Shown here in pieces: positions 21,796 through 54,984 of a DNA stretch of 64,000 nt (within the stretch, counting starts at the first letter, position 1; each line of letters starts with the position of its first letter). The notes beneath the pieces were generated by a model. The model made no database searches, was not told the origin of the DNA, and saw only the letters and a list, made by a program, of their open reading frames with translations. A program made the translations under genes and the position numbers. The stretch lies in assembly GCA_964016885.1 (NCBI GenBank), contig OZ024741.1, positions 278,690,001 through 278,754,000 of the forward strand. Reading direction: 5' to 3'. The stretch is from Eledone cirrhosa (taxonomy: Eukaryota).

Positions 21796-22011
21796 ATTTA
21801 TTTATGTTCATACACGGAACAAAAGTGCTACCTAAGGTTTCAAGGTCCAATATTGACCATATATTCAGAATGTAAGAGGGATCAAAGAGTTTAAGCGTCT
21901 GGTCACAATTAGGTCAGAATTTTGATCCATCTTACATTCTGGAGATATCGTTAATATTGGGCCTTGAAACAATACGTAGCACTTTTGTTACGTGTATGAA
22001 CATAAATAAAT
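21796..22011. mobile_element. small palindrome of two head-to-head PLE-like 3' tails with degenerate HHR cores
   Basis: Inverted arms of about 95 bp. Outward-reading strand: CTGAATA...ggtcaatattggacc ttGAAA ccttagg TA. TA-rich right flank. Confidence 0.6.
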
Positions 22012-22092
22012 GATATAATAAAATATAGTATAATATAATATAATATATATATTATATATATATATTATATATATATATATATATATATATAT

Positions 22093-22773
22093 ATAATTAG
22101 TATACTTCAATCTGGCTAAATTTTTCTTTCACAATATATATACAGATGTGTTGGTATCTGTGTTTCATCACATACATATTGATTTATACACTGCTCAGGG
22201 GATATTTTTCCTCATTCGAGCTGATTCCATTGTAAAAGAATTCATTACCTTATTAATTTTAATCTGCTCCTAGTTTGAGCTGCAAAGCCGCCTCATATAC
22301 ACGACTGTTATTTCTAGCAGTACGGTTATGAGACTAGTTAGATACTGTAAAGCCATGTGCGCCACGCAGTCTTTTAAATTATTTAGAAGTGAAGCATATC
22401 AATTTGTCTCTGGATGTTTACTGAGGAGAGCGGGACATGATATTCCTACACTTATTTAACTCGAAACATATTTGGATCTTAAAGTCTAAACTTATCTACG
22501 GAACAGGTTTGATTTTGAAATTTAAATGTGTCTAAACATCACGGCCTTTTGCCAATACAGTTCGTCTCCGTTGATTTATTATTTTAAATTGATATGGACA
22601 AACTGTAGTATAATAATTAGTATACTTCAATCTGGCTAAATTTTTCTTTCACAATATATATACAGATGTGTTGGTATCTGTGTTTCATCACATACATATT
22701 AATTTATACACTGCTCAGGGGATATTTTTCCTCATTCGAGCTGATTCCATTGTAAAAGAATTCATTACCTTAT
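22093..22773 (+). mobile_element. non-coding partial-tandem element (520-bp period) with HHR-like core; retrozyme-like
   Basis: 22093-22253 equals 22613-22773 (one mismatch seen). CTGAGGA-gag...ctc-GAAA-catat at 22421-22471. (TA)n on both sides. Confidence 0.65.
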
Positions 22774-22958
22774 ATATATATATATATATATCTTTAAGGC
22801 TTACTACCCTGTCTTTAACCTAATTCATTCAATCTGAAAATATTGAAGAGATAAGACACTTTGCCATTCTTCTCTGCTAAAATGTACCACTAGAGCTGAT
22901 TCAAATTTTCCCAGCCAGCCATCCACCTAATCTACGAAGGTATTTTAGCCTACATATT

Positions 22959-50159: not shown

Positions 50160-50220
50160 CATTATACATATTTCAGGGATACCAAATTAAATTATGGTAT
50201 GCCTTCATCAGACAAAATAC
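50160..50220 (-). ncRNA. hammerhead-like motif in the PLE-4 pLTR (copies near 53650-53710 minus, and 54245-54300 plus with a mutated core)
   Basis: CUGAUGA aggcauacca-loop-ugguaucccu GAAA uaug UA. Stem I is weak. Confidence 0.6.
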
Positions 50221-51234
50221 AATATATAAAAGTTTTACAAATAAGCTTTGACGTACCCTATTAAAATGCAACCATTGTTTTTGAAAGTCATCCGGATAGT
50301 GAATTGTTTATATAACTTTAATAAGTCATAGTGTTAAGGACAATTAGAAAAAGACGGAGAGAAAGAAAAAGACGGAGAGAAAGAAAAAACGTGGAGAAAT
50401 ATCGGAGAGAGAGATGCATGGAGAAAAAAAAGAAAGAGATAAGTAAAAACAGGAGGAAAAGGAAGGCATCGCTCATGTATACATACAGACATATATTATA
50501 CAATCATAAAAAACCTATAACACTTTTATATGCATGTTAATACACACATATACTTTTGTATAGAGATAATCAAATATCAATATATTACTAATGATTATAT
50601 TTTGGAAATATAATTATACCAATATAAATTTAATATACCAAAGGATTATATTTTGGAAATACAACTATATTAGTATAGTCAAAAGGACAAACGAATTCTA
50701 GAAATGTCAAAGCATTAAATATCTTTAAAACACTATAGAGTATCTTAAGTTAAAATAATATGTTTCATATATTTAGTATAGAAAATTATCCTACTTATAT
50801 TTCAATCAAGATATTGAAAGGGTAGACTTATGAGAATTATGAGAAGCTATCAGAATCAAAGCAAAACTAATAAAAATAAATAAAAATAAAATTAAATAAA
50901 AGTTAAATAAATATTATATCAATATAATTTAAAAATTTAAAAATTTAAAGATCTAAAAATTTCAAAAAATTTCAAAAAGAATTAAAAAAATTTTCAAAAT
51001 TCAACAAATTTAAAAGATTTAAAAAAACCAAGGATTCTACAGATATCCTTATATTTAGTATAGAAATTTATCCTACGTATATTTTATTTAAGATATTGTA
51101 AGTGTAGACATTTTAAAGTAGTTTATTATATCTATGTTTATATTTAGGAAGAAAGTTTAAAAAGAAAAAGGTGAAGGAATCTAATGATTTATCGACAGGT
51201 TTTATATATTAACTAAATTACTTAATTAATTATA

Positions 51235-53463
51235 CTACATTTTAAATTTATATTTATATTTAAACGTTGAGTTCAATCTATGTCTGCAGCAACTGAATAA
51301 ATTGTTCCTTAAATTAAGGGAATTTTTGGACTTTAATATAAAGAATATTTCTTCAATACAAAGATCACAATTTTCTGAAGAGGAATTAAAAGGAGTAGCT
51401 TGTGAAATAATATTCCAAGTCATCGAATATTTAACATTATCTCGTTTTAGGTCCCATAGTAGGCTAGATAGCGAAGTTGAAGATTTTTTGTTTGGATCTG
51501 TGAAAGAATTTTTATGATTATTGAAGCGAAATTTAAATTCAGTCGAGGTAGAACCAACGTAGTTAAACGAATTTAAATTAGTTTTAACATTACAATTGTA
51601 CACTACATTTTTAGCTAAGCAGTTGTTATTTAACGGACAGTTAGGTTTATTTCTACAGTTACAGTTATTCAATTGAATATTGCTTGGGTTATTATTGGTA
51701 TTTTGGTTAGGTTTTAAATTTCTATTATTAATTCTATTAATATTTTGTGCTAAATTTTTGGTGGACGAGTAAGTTAATTTTATAGTGTGTCTATTAAAAA
51801 TTGAGTAATATTTATGTGTTCTAGGGAAGCGTTTGTCAAGAGCTTTAAAGAATAGTTTAGCAATAGGGGTTTTAATATTTAGTGAGAATGGGGGAGCAAA
51901 CCATAATATGTTTCTAGTTCTATTTCTTTTTCGGCTTTTGGAATTATTGTAATGTTTTCTATTTAAGTTGCTAAAGTTGTTACCATAATTAAAATTGTTA
52001 TTATTTTGGTTAGTTTGCTTATTATTATTATTATCAATGTATTTAATTTCATTTCTATATCCAGCTCTACCTAACGCTTCGTTGTAATACTGCGCTTTTT
52101 CATCAAATATATTTTTATTAGATGAAATTCTTGAAATTCTTTCTTGAATAGAGTTCACTATAGTATTTTTAACAGATCTGGGGTGATTAGAGTTAAAATT
52201 AACATAATTCAAGTTCTCATTTAGTTTGTGAAATGGATAATGAAGACATGTGTTGAGATTTAGTGTTACGTCAAGAAAATTGACTATTTTATGGTTATTC
52301 TCTATTTCTACTTTTAGATTATGGTAATTAAAAAATTGTATAATTTGTTTTCTTTTCCTATTTAGTTCACAGCTATTATTTTGTATAAGTAAAAGCATGT
52401 CATCACGATATAAGCCTCCGGTTACACCTGGTATTTTTCTATGTAGCGAATTAATTATAAATAGGCCCACAAGGTCCGTTTCCTGAGCTGAGTCTGATGA
52501 TCCCATAGTTATGTCGAAATTATTATTTCTATCTGCCCTAGTCCAGAGTTGGTTATTAAATTCTATCAATGTTTTCCTTGCCGATAATATAATGTGCATT
52601 TCATTGCTAGTTAGGTCAGTATGTTTAAATGCATAATTTAGTGCCTTATTCAGTAGATTAGGAGTGATAGATGAGTAGTAGTTAGCAATATCCAGCTGAA
52701 TAAACTTATTATTATAGTTATATTTAATTTCTTTAAACCAATCGATAACCTCACTAGTCCCTTTTCATAATTTTAAGTAAGATAAATTAGGTAAGTTTTT
52801 AATTTGTTGTATTACCCTGTCTAGAATATTTTTGCTAAGTTTGCCCAGGTCAGATTTAGATGGTGCAATTAATCTGACTGGTAAATCATTTTCAAAGTTT
52901 CTTTTGTGATCCTTCATATTGATCTTAGGTTTCCTAGGCATGAAGGGTTGTGTTTTATTCTCAATGTCTAATTCATGCATTATACAAGATGCATCTGTAT
53001 TCAGTTTTTCAAGTTCGTCCTTATTTGCTACCTTGTACTTTTTCCTTAGTTCTTTCAATATAAGGTCGTTATAAATGTCCTTTTGTATTCCATAAAGATT
53101 ATTAGTTTTGTCCGACTTCACTAGAATTTTCTCTGTTTTCTCCAAGTTTTCAATATTATCCTTAATACTCCTTAGGTAATCCTGGCCTTTGAAGTTTTTT
53201 TGGAATTTGATGCCTTGGATGATAGATACGATATCATTTTCAAAATCTATTAGTAGTTTGTTGGGAGGTGGATTTTTTTTAGATTTGAAAATTTTATCCA
53301 GATTTGAAACATTTTCATTTAGATTAGATTTATCAAAGTGGAAAGCACGCCACCTGATTCTTCTTATAAAAGAGTCTGATTTTTCTATTAATTGTTTAAT
53401 AAAATCTTTGTTCCTAGGTAGAGGTATGTCTTTTAGAGAAGAAGAGATCTTAAAGAATTCCAT
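51235..53463 (-). pseudogene. Naiad-type RT + GIY-YIG ORF (743 codons including the terminal stop) with one in-frame TGA
   Basis: ORFs 52765-53463 and 51235-52599 are in frame, 55 open codons apart. Motifs SLKDIP, FIRRIRWRA, KDHK, LDIANYYSSI, GLYRDD, WFAPPF, CNCRNKPNCPL, YVGST, CDLC, CRH. Confidence 0.93.
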
Positions 53464-54984
53464 TTTTTCAGTTATAATGTAAAGCGCTCAACAATACATG
53501 AGCAGAATATATGCAAAAGTTCTATTTAAAATTGTTGGGATACAACAAGTAAATATTTTTATAACTGATATAAAGCACTCGACTAGTAATTGGAGTAGAT
53601 ATACGATATTAATAAATGGAAACTATATTTATAAAACCATATTTATTTCATTATACATATTTCAGGGATACCAAATTAAATTATGGTATGCCTTCATCAG
53701 ACAAAATACAATATATAACAGTTTTACAAATAAGCTTTGACGTACCCTATTAAAATGCAACCATTGTTTTTGGAAGTCATCCGGATAGTGAATTGTTTAT
53801 ATAACTTTAATAAATCATAGTGTTAAGGACAATTAGAAAAAGACGGAGAGAAAGAAAAAGACGGAGAGAAAGAAAAAACGTGGAGAAATATCGGAGAGAG
53901 AGATGCATGGAGAAAAAAAAGAAAGAGATAAGTAAAGACAGGAGGAAAGGAAGAAAGAAGAAAAAAGGAAGAAATAAGAAAAACAGAGGCAAGCAACAGA
54001 GAGATATTAAGTCAACAGACAGAGAGAAAAACTCAAGAGAGAGAAATGTTATATACAGAGAGAGGGAGATTATGATATTTCTCCACGTTTTTTCTTTCTC
54101 TCCGTCTTTTTCTAATTGTCCTTAACACTATGACTTATTAAAGTTATATAAACAATTCACTATCCGGATGACTTCCAAAAACAATGGTTGCATTTTAATA
54201 GGGTACGTCAAAGCTTATTTGTAAAACTGTTATATATTGTATTTTATCTTATGAAAGCATACCATAATTTAATTTGGTATCCCTGAAATATGTATAATGA
54301 AATAAATATGGTTTTATAAATATAGTTTCCATTTATTAATATCGTATATCTACTCCAAATACTTGTCGAGTGCTTTATATTTATATCAGTTATAAAAATA
54401 TTTACTTGTTGTATCCCAACAATTTTAAATAGAACTTTTGCATATATATATATATATATATATATATATATATATATATATAAATACATATCTGTATTTA
54501 TATATATATATGTATATATATATCACGATAAATTAACGGAGCCATAGGCCCTCGCCATTCCCTGTAAATAATGTGCTCAAAGGAGAAGAAATCCTGAGCT
54601 CTTTAAAATACAATATGTTGAAAAGGTAACACACCAGAGAGAGAGATACAGTGCGCTATCAATAAAACAGGGAAAAAACCACCAGTGTATGGAATCTATA
54701 ACCTATGAAAGGCAGAATATAGACACGATAATTAAAAATATAAATTAAAGCGTAAATAAATACCTCTATAACTATAACTATATATATATATATATATATA
54801 TATATATATATATATATATATATATATATATATATATATATATATATATATATATATATATATATATATATTATATATATATATATTTTATATATATATA
54901 TATATATATATATACATATATATAAATATATATACATATATATAAATACAGAGATGTATTTCTATCAATACACACACACACACT

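Follow-up and report, generated by a model that had tools for sequence, protein, structure and literature searches.

A 64,000-nt stretch of the genome of Eledone cirrhosa (GenBank assembly GCA_964016885.1, contig OZ024741.1, positions 278,690,001 to 278,754,000; hereafter the window, numbered from its first letter) contains eight genuine head-to-head pairs of Penelope-like elements (PLEs). The pairs lie between 21.7 and 54.5 kb, the 5' sides of two copies meeting in the middle and both 3' ends pointing outward, as confirmed by masked self-BLAST and by mapping on natural reference copies. They comprise four families of Hydra type by their motifs (PLE-2 to PLE-5), one Neptune/Nematis-like family (PLE-1) and three short hairpins (N21, N35 and N47), two of which are PLE 3' ends. 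The families have two discrete 3' ends, these ends are coupled within pairs, and the centres of the pairs are unique. We posit that head-to-head insertions likely arise when a single complex of protein and RNA cleaves the two strands of a (TA)n target and two reverse transcriptions start from two sites, a reading to which we assign a probability of roughly two in three.

The first-pass annotation of the window had ascribed a shared design to PLE-1 to PLE-5 and to three non-coding palindromes at 21796, 35063 and 47830 (N21, N35 and N47), and all eight are indeed inverted pairs with joined 5' sides and outward 3' ends. The orientation of the five larger pairs was taken from open frames and Pfam matches. 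That the outward ends adjoin (TA)n applies to nearly all of them, the left end of PLE-2 being the exception. The annotation had overlooked that the two ends differ: seven of the eight window pairs combine one tailed with one short-ended arm, and N47 is tail-less on both arms. Two elements of the window fall outside the design, namely a plain PLE-4 piece (43282-44310) and a plain repeat with a hammerhead core (41860-42060).

For a census of PLE orientation the 3.0-Gb assembly was searched family by family, with one 3'-proximal segment for each of the eight. Per search, 40 of 1,074-3,323 candidates were scored and 30 loci per family were used (all 40 for PLE-1); 60 stretches were extended, neighbours were merged, and loci were mapped on natural reference copies. 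Window copies, second arms of one insertion and three duplicated loci were left out, and the automatic class of seven insertions that gaps or edges had split was corrected manually (L060, X284, L093, L117, L163, L144/L150 and L195). Head-to-head, otherwise inverted, plain and unresolved copies, in this order, numbered 19, 1, 14 and 0 for PLE-1; 10, 4, 12 and 1 for PLE-2; 12, 2, 15 and 0 for PLE-3; 9, 6, 11 and 0 for PLE-4; 13, 0, 9 and 0 for PLE-5; 21, 2, 2 and 4 for N35; 6, 3, 19 and 1 for N21; and 16, 2, 10 and 0 for N47. Over all families (n=224) this gives 106 head-to-head, 20 otherwise inverted, 92 plain and 6 unresolved copies, so that 106 of the 218 resolved copies (49%) are head-to-head. 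Either arm can recruit a pair, and correcting for this by hand lowers the share for PLE-1 from 56% to ~45%. Four unselected 100-kb stretches (400 kb) held 12 pairs against ~16-17 other end-bearing matches. With double-sampling correction and from the unselected DNA the head-to-head share is ~42-45%, and the layout is therefore not the rule that it had been taken for. Among long interspersed nuclear elements (LINEs) of the same DNA, inverted 3' ends were found in 0 of 76 resolved RTE-type matches, mostly short 3' pieces, and in 0 of 10 of the L1/Tx1 type (0/86), which excludes chance as the source of the inverted layout. The head-to-head layout is thus specific to PLEs, common, but not universal.

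Every family has two sharp 3' ends, a short one and a tailed one, the tail consisting of 25-170 nt that match the start of the next unit. In the automatically classed pairs (TA)n adjoins 77 of 84 at each end, and in plain copies it is found at the 3' end in 73/83 and at the 5' side in 39/83. Exactly one arm is tailed in 109 of 113 pairs overall. For six families, with seven extra PLE-1 pairs from a long-copy search included, 89 of 91 pairs are one-tailed, two are two-tailed and none is tail-less (binomial p 2e-24 against 50%); the rule likewise holds for 15/16 pairs of N47, 5/6 of N21 (duplicate L244 removed) and 11/12 in the unselected 400 kb. Tailed arms are the longer ones in 44 and the shorter ones in 43 of 87 pairs, a tally that leaves out L144/L150 and L195 and includes three near ties. 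Arm lengths differ by a median of 721 nt and by <50 nt in 6% of pairs; their correlations vary in sign among families, and the values are distorted by anchoring. Five tail arms stop -13 to +1 nt from the short site (L092, L102, L138, L182 and L199), compared with five that end at other places up to 100 nt away (post hoc p 4e-4), and a sixth arm ending at the short site was found in unselected DNA.

Sufficient overlap for comparison was available in 75 pairs, counting those of the window and L034, and in 58 of these the two arms resemble one another more than they resemble the median family copy, contrary to the outcome by which the annotation would have discarded its idea, namely that arms are no more alike than random copies. 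Of the variants common to the two arms, 63/103 for PLE-1, 25/62 for PLE-5 and 69/146 for PLE-2 are also present in at least two other insertions, so that much of the arm sharing is inherited from the source; the remaining shared variants could be source-specific or reflect later conversion. Comparison of the central junctions, likewise proposed in the annotation, revealed that centres are built anew: 120 of 122 are distinct, and the palindromes are therefore not amplified as units. Young junctions mostly show overlaps of 0-6 nt or short gaps. Microhomology was scored by exact extension, which is usable in young families only (four junctions lack a diagonal and older families give false gaps), and we claim no statistic for it. 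No (TA)n was found at the centres. As to whether insertion itself adds (TA)n, 7 paralogous sites among 200 tested already held TA runs, several of these not being true empty sites.

According to our proposal, one protein-RNA complex, probably a dimer in which each active site would hold one start site, would cleave a (TA)n target on both strands, and two reverse transcriptions would begin, one per cut strand, at two start sites on the element RNA. Each cDNA may halt at a random place, after which repair would connect both cDNAs at their 3' ends, in many cases through microhomology of 1-6 nt. The cDNA that starts from the tail would need either to displace its counterpart or to run behind it, and might sometimes stall at the short site, which would point to one RNA in at least some events. 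Where one priming failed or its cDNA was lost, a plain copy would result, and short pairs would yield hairpins resembling miniature inverted-repeat transposable elements (MITEs). Priming of one cDNA by each target strand, at the two start sites, would predict the pattern that we observe, an argument that leans on the purified lizard PLE PAc (Poseidon of Anolis), for which a dimer is predicted (PMC11167929). In the available text of that study PAc parallels the genomic pattern described here, with an AT-rich target, cutting and extension of both strands, and two reverse transcriptase (RT) start sites that bracket the tail; the same text offers no model for inverted copies, and start-site choice between strands was not tested there. 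The genome carries the signature that would be expected of double-ended target-primed reverse transcription, and the view of the annotation, in which two cDNAs primed from both sides of a cut are joined mid-way, is favoured over a fold-back of one strand by the one-tailed pairs (109/113), the 44:43 symmetry and the variant sharing (58/75).

The role that the annotation gave to the self-complementarity of (TA)n is only partly borne out. (TA)n can pair with either start site, because the mapped start sites on the element finish at or beside TA. It aids the reaction but is neither sufficient nor needed, since plain copies also lie in (TA)n (39/83 with 5'-side TA), and ordinary target-site duplications of 9-10 bp are reported for Adineta copies whose pseudo-long terminal repeats (pLTRs) are inverted (PMC3846280). 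Extended to PLEs across clades, the reaction would amount to programmed twin priming: a dimer would bring each of the two cut strands to its own fixed start site on one and the same RNA, the tail would correspond to the spacing of the two RT active sites, pairs, tail-only arms and hairpins would be products of one reaction, and plain copies would reflect one failed cDNA. We consider the odds of this wider proposal to be even.

Several observations weigh against two coupled primings as the origin of the pairs. Plain copies account for 92 of the 218 resolved ones, and 20 more carry inversions that fall short of a 3' end or are open. The one-tail rule is broken by four pairs (L034, X284, L219 and L242) and by window hairpin N47. 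The arms are no closer than the median in 17/75 pairs, and 56 of 254 one-arm variants in PLE-1 are present in other insertions, so that some pairs may stem from two RNAs. At a few 5' junctions (L024, L076 and L137) the sequence forms a short perfect hairpin, as self-priming predicts, which suggests that self-priming also acts locally. Empty sites were met only as a few paralogous copies. In the in vitro work on the lizard PLE, which belongs to another clade, the two start sites were used alike by each strand, and the available text makes no mention of coupling (PMC11167929).

Coupled ends could also be produced if a long palindromic or hairpin DNA intermediate formed first and the endonuclease then trimmed its two ends at different sites, one short and one tailed, upon integration, a route that Craig et al. 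2021 suggested for the tail. One tail per insertion and shared variants would follow from this, and PMC8557442, as far as its text is available, credits both the tail and inverted pLTRs to endonuclease cleavage. However, a staggered cut of fixed polarity should leave the same type of arm tailed each time, whereas tails are divided 44:43; a symmetric cut would leave equal ends; where a tail-only arm has no overlap with its partner, there is no palindrome that could be trimmed; and the two ends are RT start sites in vitro (PMC11167929). We therefore regard trimming as unlikely. Fold-back, in which one strand self-primes on the antisense template (Arkhipova et al. 2013) or on cDNA and the second arm is copied from the first, is the published reading of junction palindromes (PMC3846280, in the part available) and agrees with the short overlaps at junctions, with some 5' junctions being short perfect hairpins and with short inversions inside copies. 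In 43/87 pairs, though, the tail is on the shorter arm and absent from the longer would-be template arm, which simple fold-back cannot explain; equal ends would be expected, but ends of the same type occur in only 4/113 pairs, and the loops would measure hundreds to thousands of bases. Fold-back is thus contradicted as the main route and seems quite unlikely to us, although the short junction hairpins may come from it.

That two separate ribonucleoproteins or two separate insertions land back to back in one (TA)n tract would suit the strength of these tracts as targets, the dense nesting of elements and the arm pairs that are no closer than random copies. It is nonetheless improbable: a TA spacer would be predicted where the centres have no (TA)n, the end types are coupled rather than independent, source variants are common to both arms, and the partners invariably belong to the same family. 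More improbable still are assembly or library artefacts. No bridging reads were found at the PLE-1 and PLE-2 centres in four sequencing runs each, nor was either of these two centres bridged by a contig, and the listed joints between opposite strands stem from colinear copies of the family that align to the palindrome and are uninformative either way. One two-tailed pair, L034, could be such an artefact, being a 3.8-kb inverted duplication of 99.7% identity that reaches at least 1.4 kb into the flanks; the duplication, recorded for L007/L034 with L271 (G000:C2:218596284-218606182), is centred inside a PLE-1 copy. Against an artefact speak arms that differ by up to ~10%, in tail and in length, the LINEs of the same DNA (0/86 inverted) and a layout known in other animals. 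Hammerhead cleavage as the reason why tail arms stop at the short site is not supported, the cores lying 98-183 nt upstream.

The head-to-head layout itself is already published (PMC3846280, PMC8557442). The annotation had noted that inverted pLTRs occur in some Penelope insertions, which is correct but understated, as PMC3846280, where self-priming on antisense templates is put forward, calls head-to-head the most frequently observed PLE arrangement. PMC8557442 draws an inverted copy with the tail often at only one end, credits resolution by the endonuclease and names the mechanism as open. As far as these texts are available, canonical endonuclease-positive (EN+) PLE insertions (Pen2a_Av and others, PMC3846280; Fig. 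2 of PMC8557442) share with ours a 5'-truncated copy placed in inverted orientation at the 5' end, partial tandems, a tail at one end only and (TA)n targets. Their description there is qualitative ('often', 'optionally') and their tails measure 30-40 nt, whereas our analysis provides counts, a near-strict one-tail coupling without arm bias and tails of 25-170 nt. The near-strict one-tail rule without preference for the long or the short arm appears to be new.

In the twin priming of L1, reportedly described by Ostertag and Kazazian in 2001, both target strands are said to prime cDNA on one RNA and the products to join at microhomology, the second primer reportedly acting at a random internal site so that the arms do not overlap. 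In the PLE pairs, by contrast, the second site has a fixed position, 25-170 nt away from the first, and palindromes result because the arms mostly overlap. Our literature search met no report that counts the coupling of PLE ends or applies twin priming to PLEs, subscription papers and supplements, which may hold one, lying outside its coverage.

The PLE-1 pair (26903-30982, junction 29064) has arms of 96.8% identity. Its long arm (26903-29063, minus strand) comprises a 5'-truncated open reading frame (ORF) for RT and a GIY-YIG endonuclease with the 3' untranslated region (UTR) and has a short, tail-less end, and the shorter arm (29065-30982, plus) terminates in a 41-nt tail that equals the start of the ORF. 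In PLE-2 (32492-34862, junction 33812, arm identity 88-92%) the long arm (32492-33812, minus) holds a putative Hydra-type endonuclease end without tail or adjoining (TA)n, and the shorter arm (33812-34862, plus) an 80-nt tail followed by (TA)n. PLE-3 (35951-41580, junction 40992) is a partial tandem with an inverted arm, its identity of 95.5% being confounded by an internal 140-bp repeat. The tandem (35951-40992, minus) consists of a full decayed copy (35951-39190) and a 5'-truncated upstream copy and is short at its outer end; the inverted arm (40993-41580, plus) bears a tail of ~90 nt, then (TA)n. PLE-5 (50110-54447, junction 54074, identity 95.8%) is built alike, with a full decayed copy and an upstream pLTR (50110-54074, minus, outer end short) joined to an inverted pLTR (54074-54447, plus) with a ~95-nt tail and (TA)n. 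In PLE-4 (44369-47272, junction 44587, identity 93.8%) a short tail-less inverted arm (44369-44587, minus) faces a long arm (44585-47272, plus) with RT, an asparagine-rich linker, endonuclease and a ~125-nt tail. The plain PLE-4 piece (43282-44310, minus) is flanked by two (TA)n runs and reaches neither standard 3' end. It is 99.7% identical to 45360-46362 of the long arm, while the long arm's own partner matches at only 93.8%; the piece either was copied locally and recently from an internal start or is a duplication introduced by the assembly. It is common for different PLE families to meet at their ends via one (TA)n run and form nested clusters, as in the flanks of L099 and L034 and at window positions 34860-35960.

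The families are new members of known clades. In agreement with EN+ PLEs, a single ORF encodes RT plus a GIY-YIG endonuclease at the C terminus, pLTRs derive from direct or inverted partial tandems (PLE-3, PLE-5, L013, L089, L104 and L142), and the optional tail equals the start of the next unit. PLE-1 matches RVT_1 and GIY-YIG of Pfam and has an 873-aa open frame in genomic copy L009; its motifs (DKG, a cysteine pair CDKC in the GIY-YIG core and cysteines upstream) suggest a Neptune/Nematis-like family. The Pfam search gave no match for PLE-2 to PLE-5, which display YRDD and YIG/YVG motifs and mutual similarity. Judged by motifs and this similarity, PLE-2 to PLE-5 appear to be of Hydra type, a clade recognized by RWK, DKT, a CxCX5C linker, the lack of CCHH and (TA)n targets. 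PLE-3 and PLE-5 carry all these motifs with an RWR variant, the window copy of PLE-2 has CxCX5C, CxxC and CxH, with RWR and DKT in copy L089, and one linker cysteine is altered in the window copy of PLE-4. The families had been called unrelated, which comes down to two clades, PLE-2 to PLE-5 sharing 36-54% protein identity. PLE-2, PLE-3 and PLE-5 resemble the Hydra clade of PMC8557442 in RW-R, DKT, CxCX5C, CxxC, the lack of a cysteine pair in the GIY-YIG core and (TA)n insertion; they differ from its description, in the text available, by RWR instead of RWK and by units of 3.0-4.1 kb instead of 'generally <3 kb'. Asparagine-rich inserts between RT and endonuclease occur in the ORFs of PLE-4 (44703-46211) and PLE-5 (51235-52764) and resemble those reported for Adineta PLEs (PMC3846280). 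An Rfam search for hammerhead ribozymes gave none, with microsatellite matches only; a pattern scan found cores in PLE-5 and N47 and a degenerate one in PLE-1, and none in the PLE-2, PLE-3, N21 and N35 references.

Hairpin N21 (21736-22011) consists of two 3' ends of a Hydra-like PLE family, with a tailed left arm (minus) and a short right arm (plus). N35 (34902-35825, centre ~35457-35494) joins two 3' UTR ends of another such element, its left arm (minus) bearing a 170-nt tail and its right arm being short. A PLE endonuclease ORF lies upstream on the same strand at 3/30 genomic loci for N21 (L222, L225 and L235) and 3/30 for N35 (L201, L203 and L205), which supports the origin of both hairpins as PLE 3' ends. 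N47 (47820-48094) comprises two tail-less ends of a non-coding unit of ~310 bp that is arranged in tandem and has a hammerhead-like core (47993, minus); 30 genome loci revealed no link to an ORF. The proposal of the annotation that PLEs generate MITE-like hairpins thus stands for two of the three palindromes. We also considered the three as MITEs, which would be amplified as units with a shared centre and symmetric ends, and rejected this reading: 120/122 centres are distinct, the ends are asymmetric, and N21 and N35 run into PLE ORFs. N47 resembles animal non-LTR retrozymes (bioRxiv 10.64898/2026.07.22.740005) in its short non-coding tandem unit and hammerhead-like core; it differs from them, as described in the available text, by the tail and the head-to-head pairs of its family, and no autonomous partner was found. 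Non-coding partial tandems at 31630-32496 and 22100-22770 (units ~690 and 520 bp), with dispersed relatives of which some have inverted partners, are likely further non-autonomous PLE-like families. The repeat at 41860-42060 has a strict hammerhead core (41944, plus) and terminates in (TA)n or (CA)n; 0 of 18 matches lay in a head-to-head pair and no ORF link was established, and it possibly represents a family that departs from the design.

Among the neighbouring repeats, positions 1-18148 hold a 51-bp satellite of ~356 copies (95% match), which is strongly G-skewed and forms higher-order repeats. An RTE-type LINE (23468-26875) with an uninterrupted 1040-aa ORF (endonuclease, RT and PHD finger) terminates in (ATG)n, and PLE-1 lies directly at its 3' end; copies elsewhere are >99% identical, from which the element was probably active recently. 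A decayed L1/Tx1-type LINE occupies 57990-62460, and a small AT-rich palindrome (49842-49926, arms 84%) belonged to no clear family among the DNA stretches examined.

The origin of the tandem and inverted copies of PLEs and of their tail was named open in PMC8557442, and PMC11167929 left the later steps unvalidated, as far as both texts are available. The one-tail rule ties the biochemistry of the latter to genome structure and predicts that, on one target molecule, the two strands start at different sites. In 400 kb of unselected DNA there were twelve head-to-head pairs from the eight families alone. In such genomes many short hairpins are stumps of retroelements and not MITEs, which affects repeat annotation.

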